Source: an uncultured Bacilli bacterium
GTDB taxonomy: Bacteria; Bacillota_I; Bacilli_A; RFN20; CAG-288
Assembly (NCBI GenBank): GCA_944349335.1
Contig: CALVMW010000001.1
Span: 80,309-144,308 of the forward strand
Direction: 5' to 3'
Length of the DNA stretch: 64,000 nucleotides
Shown here: one piece after another, positions 1 through 12,534 of the stretch
Numbering within the stretch: position 1 is the first letter of the stretch
Layout: each line of letters begins with the position of its first letter
Position numbers and translations under genes: made by a program
Notes under the pieces: generated by a model
The model's input: the letters and a program-made list of their open reading frames with translations, nothing else
Told to the model about the DNA's origin: nothing
Databases searched by the model: none

Positions 1-934
1 GTTTATTACCAGCAGCTTGACTTGCAGAGATAACAGACTGATAAACAGCACCGCCGCAACCGAAGATAACTTCAGTTCCTCTCTGATACCAACTTGTGCA
101 GTATTGAGTAGCAGCAGTTGTCGCTTGGAACTCACCAGCATAATAATACTGAATATTGATAGCTCCATCCTCTAAGCCTAATTCACTAGCAGCATAGTCA
201 GCACCTTGGCAATAACCAGAACCATATCTGACAACAGCAGGGACAGCCATACCACCTAAGAAGCCTAAGTTGCGATAACCTTCTTTAACAGCAGCATAGC
301 CAGCTAAGAAACCAGACTGCTCTTCACGATAAATGATAGAAGTGATATTATCGGTATATTCATAAGCAGCGTTGCCATTATCTGAATCTTCCTTAACACA
401 ATCGAAAGCTAAGAAATGAACATCATCAAATTCACCAGAATCGATAGCTTGTTTAATAGCAGATTGGAAAAGGTAACCAGGTAAAACGATAACATCAGCA
501 CCCCAAGAATTAGCTGAGCGCATAGCTTCTAAACGGCCCTGAGTATCATAATTATCTTCTGCCGGTTGATAATAATGGGTTTGAATTAAACCATCAGAAA
601 CCATATTATCAGAACCGATAGTTCCACCACCATTAGTTACAGCGAAAGCATTGACACCATTCCATGCAGACTCATTGAAAGAGTGATCATTTAATGTTCC
701 AGAATCAGTAACTAAAGCAATTCTTAAAGGCTTTTCTTCAGTGTAATTTAATTCAGCTAATTTACCATCATCGACAGTGTTATCGGTTCCGATATCTGTT
801 TCTTCTAATTCGAAAAAATCAACTTCGTCAGTAGTAGAAGAATTATTAGAACCACTGATACTAGAAGTTGATGTACAGGAACCAAGAGCTAAAACTAAGA
901 CAGCAAGAGAGATCAAACTGAACTGCTTTTTCAT
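1..934 (-). CDS. BMP-family (PnrA-like) ABC-transporter substrate-binding lipoprotein; 3' end runs off the window
   Basis: Hand translation of the minus strand from the ATG at 932-934 gives MKKQFSLISLAVLVLALGSCTSTSS... (signal peptide plus lipobox Cys, Ser-rich tether). Downstream residues (NDHSFNESAWNGV, GADVIVLPGY, FLAFDCV) are typical of the basic-membrane-protein nucleoside-binding family. The forward 69-aa ORF at 777..986 is a shadow of this gene. Confidence 0.75.
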   Translation of the reverse strand, partial: MKKQFSLISLAVLVLALGSCTSTSSISGSNNSSTTDEVDFFELEETDIGTDNTVDDGKLAELNYTEEKPLRIALVTDSGTLNDHSFNESAWNGVNAFAVTNGGGTIGSDNMVSDGLIQTHYYQPAEDNYDTQGRLEAMRSANSWGADVIVLPGYLFQSAIKQAIDSGEFDDVHFLAFDCVKEDSDNGNAAYEYTDNITSIIYREEQSGFLAGYAAVKEGYRNLGFLGGMAVPAVVRYGSGYCQGADYAASELGLEDGAINIQYYYAGEFQATTAATQYCTSWYQRGTEVIFGCGGAVYQSVISASQAAGNK

Positions 935-1525
935 ATATTCTTTTCCTCCTTTTTATATGAAAAAAACGTCTTTCCCGAAAAAATGAGCTCGACATACTGA
1001 GCCCATTTAAACCAATTACCCCTCTAGATATTTGGAATAAATGGATAGCCCCTTATAATGGCTAAGGGCTAGAAACATGACCACCACTCTAGGTCAACTA
1101 TACCCATTTTTTCAATACTTAATTTTATCACATAATTTATTTTCACCATTTTTAATCTCTATTAAATAGAAATAAACGACTAACTTTTAACCGCTATCAT
1201 TCTAGTTTTTTTAAGATTTTTATACTATAAATTACTAAAAAGGGGTTTCATGATTTTTACAAAAAAAAGATTGACAAGGTCTAAAAAATTAAATTTTGTT
1301 AAGCTGTATATACTATAAAACCAAGATAAAAATAATCTATTTTTTCACTAAATTTACTCAAACTGATTATCAACATACTTAAAAAATAGAGTAACTATAT
1401 TAAATAGCTACTCTTTTAATATCAATAATTTTATTTTTTGGTAATTTCATTTTTCATTAAAATAGCTTGTCAATATTTTTTTAACCATCTATCATCTTCG
1501 AGACTATTAATTATCTAAAGAGATT

Positions 1526-2944
1526 CTAACCAATACAGGATAGAATCTCACTAGATTTAAGATGTTTCTTTTCATAGAGAAGCTTACCTAAAGCGCTGAT
1601 TTGATCTCTGTGTGCTTTAATATATTTAATAGTTTCTTTTTCACACTTTCTAAGTAAAGCTTCAATCTTTCTCTCCATCTTTCTTCTTTTGATAGAAGTT
1701 TCGGTTCTCTTTCCTGACACGATGTGGGGAAGAGTCTCCCAACAAGAGGAATAGCCACACATATTAAACATGTTGTAAGCATCGACTCTCGCGTCTTGTA
1801 AATCGTCCTCACATCCTCTTGAACCTCTTCCACAAATAATCTTTTGCGCAAGAACACCAGCCATCGAGATTTTAATATCGGCAATAATTTTCTCATACGG
1901 CCAAAAGTCGCTTTCAATTTCATTAGCATGAAATTCGCCACTAGCACCAGAAATATTAAGTCTATTAATCTTAAAGTACTCCGGAAATGCTTTAGCAACG
2001 ACTGCATGTCCTGCTTCATGAATAGCAACTTCTAAGTTATCTTGTTTAGGTTTATCTTTAACTCTATCAGTAATATTATAAATAGAATTATCAATCATTT
2101 CTGAAGTGATATTATCAAAGCCATTCCTTAAAACTAAATCGTTTACAACAGCTTTTACACCTGCGCAAGTGATACCATTTAATGAAAGAGCAACTTCTTC
2201 ATCAATGAAATCTTCTGGAAACTTAAGATTAAACTCATGAAAATACTTTTTGAGAATCTCTAAAGCTTCTTCACCAGTTGGATATGGTACTCTTAAGAGT
2301 TTTTCTAGTCTTCCATGACGTAATAAGGCATCAGGAATATCACTGATGCTATTAGTAGCAGTTAGAACTAAGATATCATCATAGCTTTCAACACCATCAA
2401 GGTTTTCTTGTAATGCTCGCACAACTCTTCTTTCATGATTAATGAGCAAATCTAACTCATCAATGACAATAATTGCATGATCTACTTCTCGAGCTTTTTT
2501 AAATGTTTCATTGATACCTCTAACAATATTATTTTGTTCACCTTTAAAGACAAACACTGGGCAGTCACAGCATTTAATAAACTCTTTAATAAACAGTGAT
2601 TTACCATTACCTGGTTCTCCAAAGAGAATCACACCTTTAGGAACTGAAATACCTTTTGCTTTATATTCTTTTGAATGTTTAAACCAATTAATAACACTAA
2701 GAAGCTCTTCCTTTTGAGCTTCATGACCAATTACTCTTTCTAAAGGAACTTCGCCTTCTTTAAGCTTTGAAGCATAAATAAGTTCATATGATTCTACTTC
2801 TTTTGTTGAAAGTGATTCTTTTGACTCACTTGTTAAAGTAGATTCATCAAACTCCACCCAATCTTCTAAATCTTCTTCTTTTAAGTCCTCTTGTTCTTGT
2901 TCTAATGCTTCATCTTCATTAATTTTCCTTAATTGATAGTTCAT
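1526..2944 (-). CDS. FtsH-like AAA+ ATPase / M41 zinc-metalloprotease without the N-terminal transmembrane/periplasmic region (472 aa); acidic low-complexity N-terminus
   Basis: Walker A GEPGNGKS, Walker B IVIDELD, second region of homology TATNSISDIPDALLRHGRLE, and zinc site HEAGHAVVAKAF all line up with FtsH. No hydrophobic N-terminal segment; the first ~60 aa are E/D-rich. Confidence 0.7.
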   Translation of the reverse strand: MNYQLRKINEDEALEQEQEDLKEEDLEDWVEFDESTLTSESKESLSTKEVESYELIYASKLKEGEVPLERVIGHEAQKEELLSVINWFKHSKEYKAKGISVPKGVILFGEPGNGKSLFIKEFIKCCDCPVFVFKGEQNNIVRGINETFKKAREVDHAIIVIDELDLLINHERRVVRALQENLDGVESYDDILVLTATNSISDIPDALLRHGRLEKLLRVPYPTGEEALEILKKYFHEFNLKFPEDFIDEEVALSLNGITCAGVKAVVNDLVLRNGFDNITSEMIDNSIYNITDRVKDKPKQDNLEVAIHEAGHAVVAKAFPEYFKINRLNISGASGEFHANEIESDFWPYEKIIADIKISMAGVLAQKIICGRGSRGCEDDLQDARVDAYNMFNMCGYSSCWETLPHIVSGKRTETSIKRRKMERKIEALLRKCEKETIKYIKAHRDQISALGKLLYEKKHLKSSEILSCIG

Positions 2945-3472
2945 ATTTTTCCTCGCTTTTCTCTATTATTATGAACACTTTTTTTACTTATTTTTTATAA
3001 ATTTAATTATGTCCTCATATAAGTACATCAATAAAAGTGAATAAGATAGTGTTTATATTTATAAAATACTCATTTTTTATATATTTTATTTATTTACTTT
3101 CTTCTAAAAATATCCATGTTTAATCAAATTTAACAAAAAAAATAATAAAAAAAAGAAAAAATAACATATTAAATTTTTTGATTATTGAAATGATTAAAAC
3201 TATAAAAAGTAAAAAAGTACTAATCTAACAATAACGATATATTTCTTCAAAAAAGTCTTTTGTTTTTAATTTCTATTCTTATTAAATCGACTCCTTAATC
3301 ACTTCAAAAAACAGTATTTTATTGAATATAAAATAAGAATATAAATAATTATAAATAGTCGAGTTATTTTAAACTATATAACTATTTTAATCTATATTAT
3401 CTTTAATTTATATATTCTCCATAAAATCACTATTAGAAATAAGAGAAGTGAAGAGACTATTTAAATAGTTCT

Positions 3473-3787
3473 TCAATCTCCAGAATTTCCTTGATGAGAA
3501 AGATAAGTTTCCTCTGTCTCCTCTCTTTTAAAAATATAAAAATTTTCAATTCTAGAAATCATAGTACTATTAAATGCTTTACGATAAGGATAAATACTAA
3601 TTAAATCAAATCCAGCTTCACCAATATTCTCTAAAGTTGTAAACCAAATATTATATTTTGGATTTTCATTTTCCATTTTAAGTTCTTTGATTAACCATTC
3701 TGCTGGAGGCTCTGAATTACACCAATACAAAATAGAATTTCTATAGCCATTGTCAGTAAATTTAAGATAAACATAAACTGTTTTCAT
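3473..3787 (-). CDS. hypothetical protein (104 aa), co-oriented 17 nt downstream of the 430-aa ORF
   Basis: ORF only; no motif recognised; tight spacing with the upstream gene suggests an operon. Confidence 0.4.
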   Translation of the reverse strand: MKTVYVYLKFTDNGYRNSILYWCNSEPPAEWLIKELKMENENPKYNIWFTTLENIGEAGFDLISIYPYRKAFNSTMISRIENFYIFKREETEETYLSHQGNSGD

Positions 3788-3804
3788 CGATTTAACCTCC
3801 TATT

Positions 3805-5097
3805 TTATGAATTATCTGTTAATTTAGTAATTTGTTCACTTATATCGAGATTTAATGTTTTAATGTATTTTTTAGCATGGTTAAAATAAAAATTATATAA
3901 TTTTTTGTTGATCATTTCGGGCCCTACTACGACAACCATATCGGAAATGTTAATATTTCCGTTACCATGTACATCACTTACAAGCCAGGACATGAAAGCA
4001 TCTGGATCAATATAAGTATTTACTACAAAATATTTCGGATCTTCACCTTCTTTAAGGGGATGAGGAATAATATAGTCAGCTTGATTGTCATTTGGATCAA
4101 TATTTTTAAGCTCATTAATATCAAATGAAGTACAAGAAACACAAGCAAATTTTGTAGAGAAGAACTCTTCATATGATCTTTTTACAAATTTAAAAAATGG
4201 TTTTCTAACATAGAAACTTGTTCTGATCGCTTCACCGCTGATAGGCATTTTATTTTCTTCGATCATTGTTTCTAATGAATCATAGTGTTTTTTAGCATAT
4301 TTAGATTTCTCTCTAAACAATTTTTCTAAATCTCTATTTTCATCAAAATCAGCGCATAATACTTCTTTATCTGAACCATCGGGTACATTAAGATTTTCGA
4401 TAGTATCAAATATATATCCCTTAAAAAAGATAAAGTCTCCAGTATCGATTGGTAATAAAAGTGCATATAGTTTATTTCGGTATTCTTTAATCTTATAAAC
4501 TCTATACCAAAAGTCATAGAAATAAATATCAGGACTCTTAAAACCACGTATTTTAAATCTGATTTTCAACATCTTTCCTTCAGTAAATGCCTTATTGACA
4601 AGCCTTATTTTTCTACTAGTAGCAATATTATATTTATTTACTCCTTTTTTAAGCTTCTTTAACTCATTTTTATAATAGCTTCGGTTATGAATATTTGATA
4701 AAGAGTCTAATAATCTTTCTATCAAAAAATCTGTATCCTCATCCTTTGTAAATTTATCATTTTGAACCGCTGCTAAAATTTTTAAAATTTGCTCTTCACT
4801 TAAATAATATTTCTGCTCAATATAATACTTGCCTGATTTTGTTACTTCTAAGACAAAAGGAACTACATCAGAAAATTTAGTGGTAACTTCCATTAAAAAT
4901 CTAAGACAGTCCCCGATTCTTTGTCTTCTAACATCATTACCCTTTTTGGCCTTAGCATCGTATTTTAAACCGAAGTCATTAGCGTGTCGACAAATATCTT
5001 GTTGTGTGGCTGGATGGTTTTCATCAGTAAATCTTAGCAAATAGTCCAGAGTAAGCAATAATTCTATTTGATGGATTCTAGTGTCTGAATTTCCCAT
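3805..5097 (-). CDS. hypothetical protein (430 aa) with N-terminal winged-HTH-like segment and a central WYL-like segment; possible BrxR/CapW-type regulator with a long C-terminal extension
   Basis: N-terminus RIHQIELLLTLDYLLRFTDENHPATQQDICRHA resembles the HTH_11 region of WYL regulators. Central KIRFKIRGFKSPDIYFYDFWYRVYKIKEYRNKLYALLLPIDTG resembles a WYL domain core. Inference from motif resemblance only. Confidence 0.45.
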   Translation of the reverse strand: MGNSDTRIHQIELLLTLDYLLRFTDENHPATQQDICRHANDFGLKYDAKAKKGNDVRRQRIGDCLRFLMEVTTKFSDVVPFVLEVTKSGKYYIEQKYYLSEEQILKILAAVQNDKFTKDEDTDFLIERLLDSLSNIHNRSYYKNELKKLKKGVNKYNIATSRKIRLVNKAFTEGKMLKIRFKIRGFKSPDIYFYDFWYRVYKIKEYRNKLYALLLPIDTGDFIFFKGYIFDTIENLNVPDGSDKEVLCADFDENRDLEKLFREKSKYAKKHYDSLETMIEENKMPISGEAIRTSFYVRKPFFKFVKRSYEEFFSTKFACVSCTSFDINELKNIDPNDNQADYIIPHPLKEGEDPKYFVVNTYIDPDAFMSWLVSDVHGNGNINISDMVVVVGPEMINKKLYNFYFNHAKKYIKTLNLDISEQITKLTDNS

Positions 5098-5524
5098 ATT
5101 ATTCCTCCACGCTTAAATGATAATATATGAAAAAAGTATAACACACACATTTTTAATTATGTACTTATATAAGAACGATAAATATTCTTAACTTTCTAAC
5201 TAATATTAAAATTACTTTAGTTACAAACCAAAATTTTGAAATTTTTAATACTCTCTTTTAGCCTTAGTTAAATATAAGACATAATCCATAAAATCATAAT
5301 TTAGAATTTAAAAATAAGCTTATAGGTTAAATAAAGTTTAAAATATAGATTATTATTTTTTAGTGACAACACACAGACCATTTCCACATGAGTACTAAAT
5401 CAAAAAATATCCCCACAAAATAACGAAAATATAAGAAATATTTCTGTAGTACTAATACTGTTCGTACAACCCTTTTCCCACAAAATATAGATTCCATCAA
5501 TTTTGCGTTTCCTTGATGCAAAAT

Positions 5525-6540
5525 CTACTCCTCACTATCAATATTATCTTCCACTGTCTTTATAGATTCCAGGGCTTGATATTCCTGTTTTAATTCTCGA
5601 AGCAATTCTTCCTCGCTTGGTAAATACAATTTGTATTTTGACGCAAAAATCTGTGTTTCATTTTCAGGTAACGTATACTTAACTACAGACTCACTTTTAT
5701 CTGCGCACAAAACAATGCCAATCGGTGGATTGTCTCCCTCATTCATAAGTTCTCGCTCATAATAATGAACATACATCTGCATCTGTCCTAAATCCTGATG
5801 TGTTAAGTCTCCAACTTTTCAATCTATCAAAACAAAACACTTTAAAATGTAATTATAAAATACAAGATCAATTCTAAAATGCCGCCCATCAAATGTTATT
5901 CTTTTCTGTCTTGCAACAAATGAAAATCCTATGCCAAGTTCCAAAATAAATTTCTGTAAATGTGTAATTAGAGCTTGTTTTAAATCACTTTCATAAAAAT
6001 CTTCATTCGGTGTCAGTCCAAGAAATTCTAATACATATGGGTCACGGATGACATCTTCAGGTTTCTTCATCGGCTCTAAAGCCTGTATTTCCTGTGAAAC
6101 TTGCTCCTTATTTTTACTGGATAATAATCTTTCATAAAAGAAGGAATTTATCTGACGCTCAAGTTGTCTGGTACTCCATTGAGACTTTACAGCTTCCTGC
6201 ATATAAAATTCTCGTGCATTTTCATTCTCTACTCGCATTAGAAGGCGATAGTGCGTCCAACTCAATCCGCTACGCAGTGCGTAGCCATTTGGAAATGTTA
6301 AATAAAATTGCCTCATATTTTTCAAATTTGCAACGGTAAATCCTTTACCAAAATCTCGTGTCATTTGCTTTGACAACTCTTTTAATAAGCCTGTACCATA
6401 CTTAGCTTTTCCATTGCCACCTTGTTCTTCAATGATTGATTTTCCTATATTCCAATAGGCTTCAACCATTGCAAAATTAGCCGTTTGATAGACTTTATTT
6501 CTCGCTGTGGTTCAAATATTCTTTATTTCATCATAGAATT
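5525..6540 (-). pseudogene. YhcG/DUF1016-family PDDEXK nuclease, disrupted (two in-frame TGA codons, degraded start)
   Basis: The 216-aa (5819..6469) and 85-aa (5525..5782) track ORFs are in the same frame, separated by an in-frame TGA at 5819-5821 (...CFVLID*KVGDLTHQDLGQMQMY...). The N-terminal homology RNKVYQTANFAMVEAYWNIGKSIIE continues upstream of the annotated Met to a second in-frame TGA (...FYDEIKNI*TTARNKVY...) with no usable start. Matching residues include YWNIGK, NLKNMRQFY, RIDLVFYN and a DUF1016 C-terminal tail. Confidence 0.6.
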
Positions 6541-6574
6541 TTTAATTCATATACAATCCTCTTTTCTGAGATTT

Positions 6575-8584
6575 TTAAGATGGCATATTATCTTCGATAA
6601 TTTGTTTTATAATATCAAACACTAAATGAAATTCTGAAAAATCAATATTCTTCATTTCCTCACTCTCCGTGTAGATTGCCTTTGCAAATTCCATTTTGGA
6701 CAAAGCCAAATTAACCTTATTTTCATCTTTAATACTAAATACTCTTTTTTCCGATTGTCCGTCGATAATACAAATTTTCCCATGCCCACAACTATTTCTA
6801 TCCAAGCACATATAGTTCTTATCATTTGACAAACCAAATTCATCAAATTCCCGTCCCATATATATCCTTCTTGGAATACCATTAATCTCTATGGCTCTTT
6901 GTAAATCATCATCTAAATAATAATGTTCAATACACACTTGCTGCGTTTCTAATCTATGCTTTGGTATAGGCAAAATCATAGAATATACATTATTTTTCCA
7001 TATTTTGTACCTTCCTTCCACAGTTAATTGTTTGCTTGTATTTCTATCATCGGCATCAGCAACGAATATTATTTTTCGTGATTGCTGTACCTTTTCAAAT
7101 TCTTTGCACATTGTAACAAGATTAGAAGAACTCATATCTAATTTGGGGAGGTCATTGCTTTTAGAATTTTTAGGATTGTACTCAAGGAACTCTATGTCCA
7201 AATCATTATATTTTTTCTCCTGATTCTGAAAATAACGTAAAGCGGCTTTAAGATGCCTCCAGTCAGTTGCCCCTTCTGTTACAACTAAAGTCTTCTGCGT
7301 TCTATTTTGAATTGCATTTTTAATTTCTGATTGATATTTTTCTGTATTAGTCATATATGTGTATGCCTTCTTAAATTCTGTAAATCCTTCTGATGAGATT
7401 ATTTCTGCATTTGGCATCTGGTATATGTAATATCCATCTTTCCCATATTGTTCATCCATTCCTAACAGAAAAAGCGGGGAATGTGTCGTTATTATAAATT
7501 GTACTTTTGGAAATAATTTAAGCAATTTTGGTAACACCTCCCTCTGTAGTTTCGAATGTAAATGCAGTTCTATTTCATCAATAACAACAATCCCTTCTAT
7601 TTCATAATTCTTAATGCTTCTATTTATATCATTACTATCAGCATATCGTATAATCGTGGCAAACATATTAAACAATGCACTTTGTCCCGTTGATAATGCA
7701 TCCAATGTTGGGATTATGACTTTGTTGCTTTGACTATCAAAAATATTAAATCTTGATCCATACGCAGAACGAAAATTTAATCCAAAATATATATCTCTAC
7801 CGAGTATTTCCCCCATGACCTTTTCAATATTTTCTCTTGCAATATTCAATATCAATGCTTCGTTCACATCAACATGTGCAACTTGTAATCCAGTATTAGT
7901 TTTTTTTATATCCACTCTTGAATCCACAATGACATCCAAAAGCCACTTTAATGTTTCTTCCGTTACATTTTTTACTGAGATTGGCGTATTTAACTTTCCA
8001 TCATACCGATTTCTAATCATTATGTGCATGTCTGAGTCTTGCTCAGACACATAATATTTTTTCCCCATCCACTGGGGTCTTTCATATCTATCTGGTCCGA
8101 AATAACAAAAAATATTTTTCTCAAATACTTTTTCTATTTCTTTTTTTGAAATAAAAATATCTTTAAAATTTTCCTCATCTTTCCATATCCTTTTATTTTT
8201 TAATTCAACCCCTGTTTCAAGATGAAATTCATCATAAGTTAATTTGCCACTCTTAAATATATACTGACCTGCAGTATCTTCCTTATTAGATTCACAAAAT
8301 TCGATATAGGATATCATAAACTCATGACCAATATTTATCTCAGACGGAAGAATAGCTTTATAATATTGATAGCCTTCTCCATCTCTCTCTTGAACATTAT
8401 TGTAGACTTTTCCGGCCATTTCATAAAATGCATCAACTATGTTAGATAGTACTGTCGATTTTCCAGAACCATTTTCTCCGACTAATACAACGGGTTTAGG
8501 TGTATTATCACTATTTTTTCCAAAACTAATATTAACCCTTTCAGTAGGTCCAATGTTTCTATTATAAATAGATTTTATTTGCAC
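6575..8584 (-). CDS. OLD-family ABC-type ATPase fused to a C-terminal Toprim (DUF4435-like) nuclease domain; length and architecture fit a single-polypeptide PARIS (AriA-AriB) defence protein or a class-1 OLD nuclease
   Basis: N-terminal Walker A VLVGENGSGKSTVL; ABC-type Walker B/H-loop VVIDEIELHLH...FIITTHSPLFL; C-terminal LVVTEGATDWRHLKAA (Toprim Glu) and IIFVADADDRN (DxD). Intact 669-aa ORF. Confidence 0.65.
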   Translation of the reverse strand: MQIKSIYNRNIGPTERVNISFGKNSDNTPKPVVLVGENGSGKSTVLSNIVDAFYEMAGKVYNNVQERDGEGYQYYKAILPSEINIGHEFMISYIEFCESNKEDTAGQYIFKSGKLTYDEFHLETGVELKNKRIWKDEENFKDIFISKKEIEKVFEKNIFCYFGPDRYERPQWMGKKYYVSEQDSDMHIMIRNRYDGKLNTPISVKNVTEETLKWLLDVIVDSRVDIKKTNTGLQVAHVDVNEALILNIARENIEKVMGEILGRDIYFGLNFRSAYGSRFNIFDSQSNKVIIPTLDALSTGQSALFNMFATIIRYADSNDINRSIKNYEIEGIVVIDEIELHLHSKLQREVLPKLLKLFPKVQFIITTHSPLFLLGMDEQYGKDGYYIYQMPNAEIISSEGFTEFKKAYTYMTNTEKYQSEIKNAIQNRTQKTLVVTEGATDWRHLKAALRYFQNQEKKYNDLDIEFLEYNPKNSKSNDLPKLDMSSSNLVTMCKEFEKVQQSRKIIFVADADDRNTSKQLTVEGRYKIWKNNVYSMILPIPKHRLETQQVCIEHYYLDDDLQRAIEINGIPRRIYMGREFDEFGLSNDKNYMCLDRNSCGHGKICIIDGQSEKRVFSIKDENKVNLALSKMEFAKAIYTESEEMKNIDFSEFHLVFDIIKQIIEDNMPS

Positions 8585-8675
8585 TTTATCAAAAACTCCT
8601 TCCTATCTTTATCACAATAGTTTTCTATCTCTTATACTTATACATAGTACTCAAATATTATAGTTATCCTATTGT

Positions 8676-8864
8676 TCAAAAAAACCTTAATGCATCCTTT
8701 ATTGCTCCCACTTTCTCCACTGTTGAATATTTCCTCGAATGTTTAAATTCTTCTACCGCATTAGAGGCATCATACATTGGCAAACCCAAACTTCTTTTTA
8801 CCTCTGCTATATAAGCGGTAAGTACCTTGAATCCATGATTAGCTTCTATGTATTTATTTATCAT
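8676..8864 (-). other. small ORF / possible gene remnant immediately 3' of rlmD; its reading frame extends upstream without a start and overlaps the rlmD stop
   Basis: 62-aa track ORF; the same frame translates further 5' (…VRVEFGEREGKISLDNIVKRAEACKPKERVTYKMINKY…) with no Met; no family recognised. Confidence 0.2.
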
Positions 8865-8976
8865 TTTGTAGGTGACTCGCTCTTTCGGCTTGCACGCCTC
8901 GGCTCTTTTAACGATATTATCAAGCGATATTTTGCCCTCTCTCTCGCCAAACTCGACTCTTACACTGATTGTACTG

Positions 8977-10320
8977 TCAGGTTTTTTTGTGGGAAAGCAG
9001 TACTACTGTCTCTACGTGAAGAGTAAAAGGAAACATATCGACTGGTGTCACTCTTTTTACTTCATAATAGTCTTTTAATACATTTATATCGCGGGCTAAT
9101 GTGACAGGATCACAAGAAACATATACTACCTTTTGAGGTCTCAAATTAATTAATGATTGCAAAAATTCTACTGTCGCTCCTTTTCGAGGTGGATCCATGA
9201 TGACAACTGAAAAAGGAATCGTCGTTTTTTGCATAAATTCAGTGCAATCATCAGCGATGAAGTGAGCATTAAAAATATTATTAATTTTAGCGTTAATTTT
9301 AGCATCAGCGACAGCTTGTTTAACAATTTCAACTCCATAAACTTCTTTTACTTCTCTAGCACAAGATAAGCCGATCGTTCCAGTTCCACAATAGGCATCA
9401 AGAAGGATGTCATCTTTATTTAATTCAGCTCCTTTAATAGCTAAAGAATATAAATTTTCAACCTGTTTAGAATTAACTTGATAAAAAGAGTGTGAAGAAA
9501 TCAAAAACTTGTTGGTGAATATTTGATCTTTGATTCTTGTATACCCATATATAGGGACATCTTTTTCACCAAGAATAACATTAGTATGTCGATTATTAAT
9601 ATTAAAAACTACCCCTTTAACTTCAGAAATTTTTGAAATTAAGCGTTTAGCAAATTCTTTTCGGCCTTTTAATTTAGCATCTTTTACAACTATTGTAACT
9701 AATGCTTCTGATGAATCTGAGTTAGTTTTAATCAGTAAATGGCGAATATCACCTTCCATAGTATCTTCATCATAAGGTTTATATTTAAATTCTTGAAAGA
9801 GTTTTAAAGTATAATTAGTTATCTTTGTAGCTAGATTACTCTCCAATAAACATGAAGAAATAGGAACTAATTTATGAGTATTTAATGAATAATAACCAGC
9901 AGCGATTTTACCTTGAACTAACTTAATAGGCTTTTGAACTTTATTGCGATAATGATAGGGTGAAGCTAATGAGATTGTATCATCTACATCAATATCTAAA
10001 GAAGCAAATTTTTTAAATAGATTCTTAACTTTTTCCTTTTTATATTTTAATTGTTCTTTATAATCTAAATGCATAAGCTGACAGCCTCCGCATTTAGGAT
10101 AATAAGGACAAGGAGAATTAACTCTAAAAGGTGAAGATTTTAATCTTTTAATCACTTTAACATCTTTTAATTTTCCGTACTCAAAAGTCGTCTCAATGAG
10201 AGCCTTCTCTTGAGGCAACATGTCAGGAATAAATATTGTCTTATTATCTAAATAAGCGATTCCTCTTCCAAAATCATCTAGTGAGAGGATAGTTACTTCA
10301 TTTACTCTTTTACTCATCAT
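8977..10320 (-). CDS. rlmD: 23S rRNA (uracil-C5)-methyltransferase, RumA/RlmD family (TRAM + Fe-S + SAM methyltransferase)
   Basis: N-terminal TRAM-like beta region, Cys cluster CPYYPKCGGCQLMHL, SAM motif LLDAYCGTGTIGL, and C-terminal catalytic region DPPRKG...VSCDP. Confidence 0.8.
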   Translation of the reverse strand: MMSKRVNEVTILSLDDFGRGIAYLDNKTIFIPDMLPQEKALIETTFEYGKLKDVKVIKRLKSSPFRVNSPCPYYPKCGGCQLMHLDYKEQLKYKKEKVKNLFKKFASLDIDVDDTISLASPYHYRNKVQKPIKLVQGKIAAGYYSLNTHKLVPISSCLLESNLATKITNYTLKLFQEFKYKPYDEDTMEGDIRHLLIKTNSDSSEALVTIVVKDAKLKGRKEFAKRLISKISEVKGVVFNINNRHTNVILGEKDVPIYGYTRIKDQIFTNKFLISSHSFYQVNSKQVENLYSLAIKGAELNKDDILLDAYCGTGTIGLSCAREVKEVYGVEIVKQAVADAKINAKINNIFNAHFIADDCTEFMQKTTIPFSVVIMDPPRKGATVEFLQSLINLRPQKVVYVSCDPVTLARDINVLKDYYEVKRVTPVDMFPFTLHVETVVLLSHKKT

Positions 10321-11431
10321 CTAATCCATCGATAGGTCCAATCTTCTCTTTAAGAATATCTGAAACCATCTTTACATCTTCTAAATAAAACAAAGAACGT
10401 TCTTTTTCTTCTTTATGCATAACGAAATAAATCTTCATATATTTTAAATATAATTCAGCGATCCTTACATATGATTGATAAGTCATAGCAAGTGATAAGT
10501 CTTTGCAAAATTCATCGTTAACATAGAAAAAAGCCGAAGAAGAGTGGGCAATTTCACTAGCACCCTCATAGATTTTTGAATATTTTGATAATTCAGCAAG
10601 CTTTTCAACTCCATCGCGGAAGTTTAATTTAAAGCAGGCATCATTAGGATCAAATTTAGGATGAGAATAAAGCCAACCATATTCGATAAATTTTTTCATA
10701 TCTTTGCTCTTTAAGCCGTGTTCTTTCATATTTTCTTTGATCTGGGCAAAGATAATATCTAGTTCTTCTTGCGCAAAATTATCTTTATTTCTATAAGCAT
10801 TATTATAACTTATATGAGTTAAATAATCGCGGCGGCATTTTTCATCACCATCAACTAAAAGTTTTAAAACACATTCAGATTCATGCAATGTTCGCCAAGA
10901 GACAAAGGCATCAGGAAAAAGACCTAAGTTAAGCATTTTTAAAAAACCAGTAACCTTCTTAAAAACAGTTTCAAAAATATCGCTTACTAAAGAAGTAGAA
11001 GGATTAACTAGAGCCAGAGGAGAATTGATATGTTCTAAATAATCGACTGATGATTGCAAAATAGAAACATAGGGATCAGATGGTTCTATTCCAGTATTTA
11101 TATTATTTTTTGAATACGCTAAATATTCGTCATACCTTTTTAATAAATTGTTGACAACATCATAATTTTTCTTTTTCTTCTCATAATCAGGAATGAGTTT
11201 TAACTTTTTATATTCGCTGATAAGCATATCGATAAAAGAAGTTAATCTTCTTCTGATCTCAAAAGCCGAAAGTCCTTCAAAAGAGTTATTATAGCGACTA
11301 AAAATCTGTTTAATAGTCTTTTTCCCCATCTCTAAAATTCCCGCAACATCTGTGTCGCTTAAATCATGAGCTTGGAATTTGATCATATCGATGACGATTA
11401 AATCGAAGGTAGTTGTATTTATTTTTTCCAT
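10310..11431 (-). CDS. hypothetical protein (373 aa), possible N-terminal HTH
   Basis: ORF overlaps its neighbours by 11-13 nt (operon-like); SDTDVAGILEMGKKTIKQIF could be an HTH; nothing else recognised. Confidence 0.4.
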   Translation of the reverse strand: MEKINTTTFDLIVIDMIKFQAHDLSDTDVAGILEMGKKTIKQIFSRYNNSFEGLSAFEIRRRLTSFIDMLISEYKKLKLIPDYEKKKKNYDVVNNLLKRYDEYLAYSKNNINTGIEPSDPYVSILQSSVDYLEHINSPLALVNPSTSLVSDIFETVFKKVTGFLKMLNLGLFPDAFVSWRTLHESECVLKLLVDGDEKCRRDYLTHISYNNAYRNKDNFAQEELDIIFAQIKENMKEHGLKSKDMKKFIEYGWLYSHPKFDPNDACFKLNFRDGVEKLAELSKYSKIYEGASEIAHSSSAFFYVNDEFCKDLSLAMTYQSYVRIAELYLKYMKIYFVMHKEEKERSLFYLEDVKMVSDILKEKIGPIDGLDDE

Positions 11432-12534
11432 AGATCCCTCATAACTATATATGACTCAATTAAGGTCGAACCTATATTATAACCTCCGCAAGGAAGATTA
11501 ACATCTAAAACTTCACCGATAGCATATAGATTCTTATCTTCTTTTGAGGAAAAATTATGATTTAATAACTCTATATTAATACCACCATATGAGACCTGCG
11601 AATCTTTAAAAGGATAAAAATCCTGGAAATGAAAGAGAAGTTTACTATTTTTTATTTTATTCTTTTTTAGATATTCGATTAAAAATTTAGGATAAGCTGA
11701 TAAATCAGATATTAATTTAAACCCTTGGTATCTAGAAAAATCGATTTGAATAGATATTTCGTCTTTATTATATCCATCCTTTATCAGTTCATTAATATAT
11801 AAAGATAGGTTCATGATCACAATCCCAGATAAACCATCTTCCTTAAAGAGAACTTCGCCTTCTTCAGAATAAATTATCTTTCCCTTAACTAAGAGTGAAC
11901 AATTTCCTCTCAACCTTTGATTTTTTAAGCTAAAAGTTTTTTCTCTTACTTTTATTGGAACTAAAGAAGGAGAAAAAGGTCTATATGGTATCCTAAGTGA
12001 ATCAAGCAAACTGTAATCTACCTCTCTATCATAAGAAAAACCACCGGGAGCAAAGATTATTTTATCGTAAGGCTTAACTGACTTTTTTTCATTTGCAATA
12101 TAAGTGACTTCTTTTTTTATCCTATCAATTTTAATCACGTCATTAAAATTAACTGATATATGACTATCAATTTTCGATATTAAAAAATTGTAAATTGATT
12201 CAGAGCGATTAAAGAAAGGATAATATAAATCACCTTCTTTATAATATGAAAAAGAAAGTTTATCAGTTAAATAATGAAAAAAAGCATTAGGAAAATCTTC
12301 TCTATTAAAGAAGAAATCTTTTAGTTTATGCAAATAAAAGACATCATAATTATCACTATTTAAAAGTTTTTCATTGAAAAAATTACAGCGCCCATTACCA
12401 GCGACTAAAATTCTTCTTGCTAATATATCATTTTTTCTTTTTTTATCAAAAATGGTTATATGATATTTACTAGATAATTCAATAGCAGGAATCAAAGAAG
12501 AAATACCGCCACCTATGATGACTAATTCATCCAT
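11419..12534 (-). CDS. NAD(P)/FAD-dependent oxidoreductase, HI0933/BaiN-like flavoprotein family
   Basis: N-terminal dinucleotide-binding fold LVIIGGGISSL...IFDKK and the GNGRCNF motif characteristic of the HI0933 family. Confidence 0.65.
   Translation of the reverse strand: MDELVIIGGGISSLIPAIELSSKYHITIFDKKRKNDILARRILVAGNGRCNFFNEKLLNSDNYDVFYLHKLKDFFFNREDFPNAFFHYLTDKLSFSYYKEGDLYYPFFNRSESIYNFLISKIDSHISVNFNDVIKIDRIKKEVTYIANEKKSVKPYDKIIFAPGGFSYDREVDYSLLDSLRIPYRPFSPSLVPIKVREKTFSLKNQRLRGNCSLLVKGKIIYSEEGEVLFKEDGLSGIVIMNLSLYINELIKDGYNKDEISIQIDFSRYQGFKLISDLSAYPKFLIEYLKKNKIKNSKLLFHFQDFYPFKDSQVSYGGINIELLNHNFSSKEDKNLYAIGEVLDVNLPCGGYNIGSTLIESYIVMRDLWKK

Follow-up and report, generated by a model that had tools for sequence, protein, structure and literature searches.

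A strain-variable accessory locus at the end of rlmD in an uncultured Bacilli bacterium, probably built in two layers

CapW and BrxR, regulators built from a winged helix-turn-helix (wHTH), a WYL and a WCX part, are repressors of the cyclic oligonucleotide-based anti-phage signalling system (CBASS) and of bacteriophage exclusion (BREX), and PafBC and DriD, of the same architecture, are activators of damage responses. FtsH, in which a single AAA+ module is followed by an M41 zinc peptidase with the motif HEAGH, has an essential aromatic residue in its pore loop. Septu and the type I-A retrons carry the ABC ATPase PtuA with a PtuB HNH partner, and the OLD nucleases of class 1 are each encoded by a single stand-alone gene, as an ABC ATPase followed by a C-terminal TOPRIM domain. 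The TOPRIM domain of the type I-C retron Eco2 (Ec67), with the catalytic residues E374, D378, D460 and D462, cleaves tRNA after removal of a cage of multicopy single-stranded DNA (msDNA) (PMC12916289). Lastly, rumA/rlmD is a target of serine-integrase elements in Firmicutes, and their integration exchanges the C-terminus of RumA (PMC4701971). Against this background we analysed positions 1526-8976 of a 64-kb window of DNA from an uncultured Bacilli bacterium (the window is the whole length of DNA studied, and its coordinates are used throughout; L- and P-numbers denote the metagenomic loci or contigs and the proteins compared), a stretch that lies between a Bmp-family lipoprotein gene and rlmD.

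With a probability that we would put at about 0.7, this is a two-layer locus, in which an older module of regulator and protease received a later insertion that brought an ATPase-nuclease and a dead YhcG gene. A previous reading of the letters, made from the sequence only, had seen an accessory or defence island here; the accessory nature stands, the locus being strain-variable, whilst the single island gives way to two nested units.

Three alleles and an insertion in the end of rlmD

The evidence that carries this reading comes from contigs of the same species. The rlmD gene of the window has a 97%-identical counterpart on 17 metagenomic contigs, its next relatives being ~60% identical and its named close relatives being ‘Bacilli bacterium’ metagenome-assembled genomes at 55-58% (P0019, P0078); synteny in reference genomes, queried with rlmD, gave only 37-39% identical matches and was uninformative. 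The alleles were resolved by exact-protein look-ups in metagenome assemblies, where the recorded gene calls place the rlmD start one codon downstream of the window's call. Among the 22 conspecific contigs, whose flanks are 97-98% identical, 17 carry an allele that we call C, two carry allele A and three allele B, and since these contigs differ in gene content and order between rlmD and Bmp, the comparison of related genomes supports the accessory locus that the sequence-only reading had supposed, strain-variable and made of two nested units of different age. The features of the locus are as follows.

1..934, minus strand, running off the window start: 5′ part of a Bmp-family lipoprotein gene (translation; Pfam Bmp on the identical gene in L009/L011), a conserved flank outside the island
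1388..1414, minus strand: terminator-like hairpin and T-run, ~110 nt past the protease stop codon
1526..2944, minus strand: gene of a 472-aa soluble FtsH-like AAA+/M41 metalloprotease (Pfam AAA and Peptidase_M41, TIGR01241)
3011..3026, no strand: putative operator O2, a 16-bp palindrome, GTCCTCATATAAGTAC on the plus strand
3473..3787, minus strand: 104-aa orphan gene, with a homologue in L021 and in allele A
3805..5097, minus strand: 430-aa regulator gene (wHTH, helical linker, beta-barrel and alpha-beta C-domain in the model)
5161..5176, no strand: putative operator O1, a 16-bp palindrome, GTACTTATATAAGAAC on the plus strand
5338..5411, minus strand: displaced original rlmD 3′ end (reading frame and L055 alignment)
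5377..9004, minus strand: nested insertion of 3.6 kb into the rlmD 3′ end (absent from allele A; L055 alignment)
5525..6550, minus strand: YhcG/DUF1016 PD-(D/E)xK nuclease pseudogene (Pfam, PADLOC and frame analysis), called as two open reading frames (ORFs), 5525-6469
6575..8584, minus strand: gene of the 669-aa ATPase-nuclease (PtuA-type ABC ATPase and retron-Eco2-type TOPRIM)
8676..9004, minus strand: replacement rlmD C-terminus, of which 8676-8864 was called as a 62-aa ORF
9005..9039, minus strand: left copy of a 35-nt repeat, inside rlmD (codons DMFPFTLHVET; 34/35 identical to the empty site)
8977..10320, minus strand: rlmD (23S rRNA m5U1939 methyltransferase) as called (Pfam tRNA_U5-meth_tr; 97% identical to the conspecific P0001), a conserved flank

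Allele A runs rlmD, 430-aa gene, 104-aa gene, AAA-M41 protease and Bmp, with neither the 669-aa gene nor YhcG; in L055, which carries it, an rlmD of 445 aa is followed by 256 nt and then by a 430-aa gene 97% identical to the window's. Allele B, that of the window, is allele A plus the 3.6-kb insertion at 5377-9004, and one of its contigs, L009, is 100% identical to the window across 12 kb. Allele C, for which two contexts are displayed (L007, L008) and the other 15 places are listed as similar, has flanks 97.5% and 98% identical to the window (98% for the Bmp gene) and only 2.4 kb between rlmD and Bmp, holding ORFs of 223, 97 and 53 aa in L007 and L008. Its homology to the window stops at 9007, in the end of rlmD, and restarts at 1669, in the end of the protease gene. 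The 1.6 kb in the middle is a mosaic of three pieces, devoid of the regulator and of ~90% of the protease: the 3′ half of a gene of PolC-like type, of which other loci have an intact 428-aa version at 95% identity; a spacer retaining an operator (L007 12834); and the final ~143-146 nt of the AAA-M41 gene (window 1526-1669), the sole part of the protease kept. Measured against this commonest allele, the boundary that had been drawn at 1526 moves to 1669, inside the protease gene.

The junctions of the insertion can be read from the alignment with L055, in which window 12000-9005 pairs with L055 6725-9720 and window 5411-3431 with L055 9686-11666, at ~97% identity each. Because both alignments cover them, 35 bases of L055 are used twice, and the junctions delimit an insertion of ~3.6 kb at window 5377-9004. 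The empty site of L055 reads ...GATATGTTTCCTTTTACTCTTCATGTAGAGACAGT on one side and CTGTGTGTTGTCACTAAAAAAATAA on the other. At the left junction, from 9039 downwards, 35 nt of the empty site (34/35 identical) give way to novel sequence; at the right one, from 5411 downwards, a degenerate copy of the repeat, GATATTTTTTGATTTAGTACTCATGTGGAAATGGT, is followed by the original continuation, in such a way that 5377-5411 is the right repeat copy and 5338-5376 the original short-form terminus with its downstream sequence, collinear with the empty site. The displaced terminus was also recognised independently of the L055 comparison: its reading frame gives GDIF(stop)FSTHVEMVCVLSLKN against VDMFPFTLHVET... 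in rlmD, it is the top non-self match of the rlmD end in the window, and its score was attained by one of 1000 shuffles. A generic repeat search picked up the operator pair (D7/I3) and missed this degenerate repeat, and the earlier statement that there are no direct repeats has to be withdrawn in view of the imperfect 35-nt rlmD-end repeat at 9005-9039 and 5377-5411.

By this insertion the C-terminus of RlmD was exchanged, allele A ending in ...HVETVCVLSLKK(stop) and the window in ...HVETVVLLSHKKT(stop), its new end reading ...VVLLSHKK. There is a run of seven A at ~8979-8985, directly after which the shifted frame reads KKPDSTISVRVEF...MINKYIEANHGFKV...RFF(stop), and the 62-aa ORF corresponds over its whole length to the C-terminal 61 residues (476-536) of long-form RlmD proteins of 539 aa from related taxa (36% identity, E 5e-7). 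Because of this match and the A7 frameshift, the ‘gene remnant abutting rlmD’ of the sequence-only reading (8676-8864) is not a foreign one but the C-terminal tail of a long-form rlmD, which came with the insertion and has lost its frame through a single additional A.

Like the integrative elements that target rumA (serine-integrase integrative conjugative and integrative mobilisable elements), the insertion has direct repeats at its ends, one of them in rumA, and a known empty site; unlike them, it has no integrase or conjugation gene, its cargo is only 3.6 kb and its repeat is 35 nt and degenerate. It could have arrived by site-specific recombination in trans, as the remnant of a larger element, or by recombination with a donor of long-form rlmD carrying the cargo. 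In three other loci where the regulator gene lies downstream of rlmD (L014, L021 and L022), the sequence upstream of it yielded no convincing rlmD-end remnants. L022 has, ~350 nt upstream of 10001, an in-frame ‘VVDIFPIT(stop)’ that resembles RlmD's conserved VDMFPxT end, at about the same distance from the regulator as the window's displaced rlmD terminus; the seven residues of ‘VDIFPIT’ are too short to judge.

The regulator, its operator and the protease

The 430-aa protein matches nothing in Pfam (even at E 10), PADLOC, PHROG or NCBIfam, a profile search of PDB gave nothing relevant, and it has no sequence similarity to the WYL profile or to solved WYL proteins. It belongs to a family of 171 clusters at 90% identity, with 167 representatives at E <=0.001 in a profile search of 1.84 billion proteins. 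Its predicted structure has an N-terminal winged helix-turn-helix, a helical linker, a beta-barrel and an alpha-beta C-domain, with DriD and PafBC as top structural matches, and the family would thus fold like the wHTH-WYL-WCX regulators (DriD, PafBC, BrxR, CapW); the model bears out the ‘regulator-like’ gene of the sequence-only reading. In the model it resembles these in a three-part architecture (winged helix, beta-barrel, alpha/beta C-domain), and it shares with them a palindrome upstream of its own gene and surroundings of defence genes; it differs from them in its length (~100-150 aa more than BrxR or CapW), in an operator that marks many different cargo cassettes at one fixed distance, and in its presumed target here, an M41 protease.

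About a third of the listed family members are ~150 aa longer (583-595 aa; P0170, P0204, L018 7001-8752), with an extension that includes a Walker A-like GTGKTS, and one of them has precomputed nSTAND3/AAA_16 matches; such a long form would join a P-loop fragment to the regulator.

The operator emerged from the repeat search as a 25-nt match of 3002-3026 with 5152-5176, whose core is the palindrome GTACnnATATnnGTAC. Only two sites in the 64 kb reach at least 11/12 matches, namely O1 and O2, with 0.25 expected from shuffles; the centre of O2 lies 74 nt upstream of the protease start codon and that of O1 71 nt upstream of the regulator start codon. We surveyed 27 loci, 311 kb in total, made up of the window and 26 fetched loci encoding members of the 430-aa family. 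The palindrome lies 69-77 nt upstream of the 430-family gene in 16 loci, and it is found upstream of the AAA-M41 gene in seven of ten (the window and six others), of a 323-aa family in three out of three, and also of NADAR, LRR_5, PolC-like and several orphan genes. With at least 10/12 matches required, 37 of 51 sites precede an ORF start by 60-90 nt (32 by 70-80 nt), as opposed to 1.5 expected at random. This is strong comparative evidence for what would be a regulon in which every cassette has its own operator and promoter. The 430-aa protein would be the one binding the palindrome, and the operator shared with the separately transcribed protease gene implies that it would control this neighbour too, be it by repression or by activation, since its relatives do either.

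Two of the cargo observations concern allele C. At L007 12834-12849 an orphan operator, GTACATATACAAGTAC, and promoter-like sequence are joined to the 3′ stump of the protease, the regulator gene being gone. Several 430-family genes have beside them, sometimes with an operator of its own, the gene of a 428-aa protein (L018 8846-10132, L033 7160-8446, L007 11813-12484) that gives weak matches to DNA_pol3_alpha and a finger domain and resembles residues 1144-1323 of PolC; in L007 only its C-terminal half is present, 95% identical to the copy in an otherwise divergent locus.

The protease matches Pfam AAA (1e-19) and Peptidase_M41 (2e-15), and its residues 62-467 match the FtsH model TIGR01241 at 1e-41, with 143 bits against a cut-off of 600 and with the model matched only from its position 155. 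With FtsH it shares the order of its domains, one AAA+ module and then an M41 zinc peptidase that carries HEAGH. Unlike FtsH, it has neither transmembrane helices nor a periplasmic domain (no hydrophobic segment is found, and its first 60 residues are acidic and variable), lacks the pore-loop aromatic and is accessory instead of essential. Across nine homologues from different loci GEPGNGKS (Walker A), DELD (Walker B), the arginine fingers R209/R212 and HEAGH are invariant, and the initial 55-75 residues are acidic and variable. It cannot be assigned to an Iet system, as there is no S8 protease (IetS) in the locus.

The 104-aa gene begins 17 nt after the regulator gene and is probably co-transcribed with it. 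Its product has no Pfam, PADLOC, PHROG or NCBIfam match, in accordance with the orphan ORF of the sequence-only reading, and homologues are found only in L021 (47%, same position) and allele A. Two ideas on its nature were rejected: it bears no similarity to the C-terminal (P-loop) extension of the long-form regulators, of which it might have been a detached form, and a resemblance to DUF4177 finds no support in Pfam even at E 10.

In nine of 15 informative loci, and in the window as well, the regulator and protease genes share a strand and are 0.3-6.3 kb apart, with variable genes in between. In L014, L021 and L022 the regulator gene is 1-7 kb downstream of an rlmD that is 44-48% identical to the window's; since the pair recurs downstream of rlmD in other genera, it is a recurrent module and not a one-off acquisition. 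In L021 and L022 other cargo occupies the space between rlmD and regulator: a set of four genes, DUF6339 among them, and a Fic gene. In a Pfam census of 128 genes near 430-family genes, defence-associated and related families predominate: AlwI, DpnII, EcoRII and methyltransferases; GmrSD, Schlafen/AlbA_2, Fic and YhcG; ADP-ribosylglycohydrolase and HAD_SAK_2. These neighbourhoods, with their restriction-modification, GmrSD, Schlafen/AlbA_2 and Fic genes, give further backing to the defence label of the sequence-only reading. Integrase families are absent from the 25 families listed of the 71 matched, and neither protease nor regulator has viral relatives in IMG/VR (2.9 million viral contigs), PHROG matches being only to unannotated families. 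Between loci the protease is 67-89% and the regulator up to 75% identical, as against 44-48% for rlmD. From these comparisons we conclude that the module is accessory and probably horizontally exchanged, tends to sit downstream of rlmD and attracts cargo, whilst old synteny under strong constraint could be an alternative to horizontal spread.

The 669-aa ATPase-nuclease and its dead neighbour

Residues 1 to ~380 of the 669-aa protein form a PtuA-type ABC ATPase (PADLOC PtuA 5e-34; NCBIfam PtuA 8e-24, under its cut-off), and against solved PtuA of the retrons Ec78/Ec83 and of Septu the protein scores 5e-14 to 2e-8. For residues 400-669, PADLOC matches only the C-terminal domain of its retron type I-C RT-Toprim model (2e-32) and of type XII RT-TIR models; the NCBIfam model of the retron Ec67 fusion matches this domain as well, and sequence searches of Pfam and PDB find nothing for it. 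In a further comparison of the protein, recorded as two unlabelled values each, PtuA chains gave 23-27 and 324-367, the retron Eco2 (Ec67) protein 13.1 and 240, and OLD nucleases 11.8-14.2 and 230-264. T436-E437-G438, D441, D510 and D512 are invariant in 33 aligned members of the family, and the spacing of E437, D441, D510 and D512 agrees with that of the Eco2 TOPRIM catalytic residues.

The protein thus shares with Septu and the type I-A retrons the PtuA ABC ATPase, and differs from them in having no PtuB HNH partner (no adjacent PtuB HNH gene exists in the stretch, the next gene being the YhcG pseudogene), no reverse transcriptase or non-coding RNA, and a nuclease that is fused to it and of the TOPRIM type. 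With the retrons of type I-C it has in common the TOPRIM effector with catalytic E...D and DxD; it has no reverse-transcriptase domain, and an Rfam scan of 1-12000 found no msr/msd RNA. The ABC ATPase would have to gate the nuclease, replacing the msDNA cage of Eco2. With its ABC ATPase first and its TOPRIM after it, both encoded by a single stand-alone gene, the protein has the overall design of the OLD nucleases of class 1. PARIS, where the ATPase AriA has the TOPRIM protein AriB (DUF4435) as partner or fusion, differs from what is found here. On these likenesses the protein is a predicted stand-alone ATPase-nuclease of OLD-like design that combines an ATPase of the Septu type with a TOPRIM of the Eco2 type.

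Its family numbers at least 1,704 proteins, uniform in length at ~670 aa. Where their surroundings were viewed the homologues are solitary, next to toxin-antitoxin genes on plasmids or next to copies of IS110; one is part of a defence island that also encodes a helicase-MZB pair of the DISARM/Druantia type, a Schlafen/AlbA_2 protein and an HNH nuclease, and another is alone between glycogen phosphorylase and sbcCD. The ‘intact defence-type ATPase-nuclease’ of the sequence-only reading is whole, its defence label being one of homology and context.

In L048 a 54%-identical homologue is flanked by duplicated serine recombinase (Resolvase) fragments and two copies of a 64-aa ORF, at 4160-4820 and 7526-7955, as if inserted with a flanking duplication. 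A homologue of 806 aa, P0436, has N-terminal HsdR_N-type domains (PF04313, PF13588), a tie to type I restriction-like DNA recognition modules.

The YhcG gene begins 24 nt past the 669-aa gene and comprises 341 codons in a single frame, with matches to Pfam DUF1016_N (5e-40) and YhcG_C and to PADLOC PDC-S02 (2e-99). It is a pseudogene, the decayed nuclease already suspected from the letters: three in-frame stops interrupt it, a TAA at codon 3, a TGA at codon 13 and a TGA within ‘LID(stop)K’, the (D/E)xK motif. That TGA might be a sense codon was considered and rejected, as a TAA is among the stops and table 11 leaves the long ORFs of the window uninterrupted. No YhcG remnant was found beside the 70% homologue of the 669-aa gene in L051, which argues that the two genes are not a fixed travelling pair.

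Explanations of the locus and its surroundings

The two layers could have worked as follows. Layer 1 (~1526-5376), which in allele A exists without layer 2, would be a regulator-effector module, in which a wHTH-WYL-WCX-like factor, co-transcribed with its 104-aa partner, would bind GTACnnATATnnGTAC upstream of its own gene and of the protease gene. By analogy with CapW, BrxR, PafBC and DriD, it might sense a nucleic-acid or damage signal of infection or stress and then turn on the protease, an effector that could degrade phage or host proteins. Layer 2 (5377-9004) is a later insertion at the last codons of rlmD, which replaced the RlmD C-terminus and left the old end as a degenerate direct repeat. 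It brought a single-gene defence candidate, which would be an ATP-gated nuclease that might shut down the infected cell and possibly acts on tRNA, together with the YhcG nuclease gene that is now dead.

Several observations weigh against this reading. Neither the insertion (5377-9004) nor the stretch in its entirety has an ORF for a recombinase, and the right copy of the repeat is only ~60% identical to the left one. Because L009 matches the window at 100% identity for 12 kb, allele B, its A7 frameshift included, may come from one sample. The protease reads N(V/I)VEG at the pore-loop position of FtsH, and since this takes the place of the aromatic residue it may not translocate its substrates in the manner of FtsH; its matches to IetA are weak (PADLOC 6e-14; NCBIfam 37 bits against a cut-off of 510); no known defence system has an M41 protease, and nothing relevant turned up in the literature that would connect M41 or FtsH-like proteases with defence or with WYL regulators. 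Nor need layer 1 be anti-phage, judging by the WYL relatives PafBC and DriD, which run housekeeping DNA-damage responses.

This last point can be extended into a different, and in our view doubtful, account of layer 1, namely a LexA-independent DNA-damage or stress regulon, like that of PafBC in actinobacteria or DriD in Caulobacter, that would induce repair and proteostasis genes, including the protease here and the PolC-like protein elsewhere. It gains from DriD and PafBC being the top structural matches of the model, from the presence in other operator cassettes of the PolC-like 428-aa protein, HAD_SAK_2, NADAR and ADP-ribosylglycohydrolase (RNA-repair or ADP-ribose-processing), and from the pair lying downstream of rlmD in four lineages with rlmD only 44-48% identical, which could be old synteny. 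Such a regulon is difficult to reconcile, however, with a module so dispensable that 17 of the 22 conspecific contigs are devoid of the regulator and of 90% of the protease, with protease and regulator identities (67-89% and up to 75%) far above that of rlmD between loci, which suggests horizontal spread, with neighbours that are mostly restriction-modification and other defence genes, and with a 430-aa family that is tiny and patchy.

It is very unlikely, on the other hand, that the whole of 1526-8976 is one mobile element (an integrative mobilisable element or a prophage remnant) that entered once between Bmp and rlmD: the genes are indeed all co-directional, rumA/rlmD is a known target of serine-integrase elements (PMC4701971) and a repeat of the rlmD terminus exists, yet the repeat encloses 5377-9004 only, allele A has layer 1 without layer 2 at precise junctions, so that at least two events are needed, and allele C retains fragments of a different version of layer 1; in addition, there is no integrase, relaxase or phage structural gene and there are no relatives in 2.9 million viral contigs. 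We find it hardly more credible that the stretch is decaying junk, functionless remnants among which the intact ORFs survive by chance. The three stops of YhcG, the frameshifted rlmD extension, the mosaic of gene fragments in the commonest allele and the long, AT-rich spacers would all fit, but the 669-, 472- and 430-aa ORFs are full length against large or diverse sets of homologues, with every catalytic or invariant residue kept, alleles A and B share an undisrupted regulator and protease at 97% identity, and both O1 and O2 are intact.

An island of this sort is in itself nothing unusual. The novelty lies in the three-allele history with exact junctions, the sequence-orphan WYL-like family with its positioned operator, the link to a membrane-less FtsH-like protease and the fusion of PtuA with an Eco2 TOPRIM. 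The locus is a worked example of how a defence hotspot is assembled with no visible integrase, one species holding empty, filled and decayed alleles, with junctions that fall within the 3′ end of rlmD, an established target of integration. It also offers a testable regulatory unit, made of a regulator family unseen by profile databases, a precise 16-bp operator and a defined target, the latter a membrane-less FtsH-like protease of a type so far unlinked to phage defence or to WYL control. By joining the ATPase of Septu and type I-A retrons to the tRNA-cutting TOPRIM of retron Eco2, the 669-aa protein suggests an exchange of parts between retron effectors and free-standing ATPase-nucleases. More tentatively, the 430-aa family might be an unrecognised sequence-orphan branch of WYL-type sensors governing a ‘cassette regulon’ in gut Bacilli-like bacteria, whose cargo (protease, PolC-like, NADAR, LRR and orphan genes) would each carry the palindrome at a fixed distance, and in which the protease would be the effector of a new inducible anti-phage system acting by regulated proteolysis; we consider this combined proposal possible rather than likely.

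As for the composition of the locus, several features noted in the sequence-only reading hold: all ORFs from Bmp to rlmD are on the minus strand, and the spacers are long and AT-rich, with 16.7% GC at 2945-3472 (528 nt) and 23.4% at 5098-5524 (427 nt), to which 961-1525 (565 nt, 25.1%) can be added. The GC and codon-usage profile that it had suggested as a check did not mark out the stretch, the stretch having 29.9% GC against 31.7% for the window and the GC3 and codon usage of its genes being inside or just beyond the background range of the window. It had also seen no integrase and no tRNA target, and rightly: no integrase, relaxase or phage structural gene is found among the ORFs of the stretch (Pfam, PHROG), and there is no tRNA near it, the window's only ones being at 56.5 kb. 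Rfam gave nothing above noise in 1-12000 and in the long spacers, and the promoter/terminator scan found promoter-like sites no more frequent than in shuffled sequence. The hairpin at 1388-1414 lies within a spacer common to alleles A, B and C, which at 961-1525 is 91-96% identical to L007.

The surroundings are, as expected, of the housekeeping kind, with rlmD, S15, TruB, RbfA, IF-2 and NusA as adjoining genes. A 373-aa DUF5677 gene at 10310-11431 on the minus strand shares 11 nt with rlmD and 13 nt with the HI0933-like gene upstream; it is kept in all three alleles and also in L021 (51% identity), and looks like a core operon member of a family with no known function. Further away, the gaps 46321-46794 and 43064-43590 have no ORF of 100 aa or more, and the kilobase at 46-47 kb, where no Rfam family is matched at gathering thresholds, is with 20.6% GC the most AT-rich of the window outside the island.

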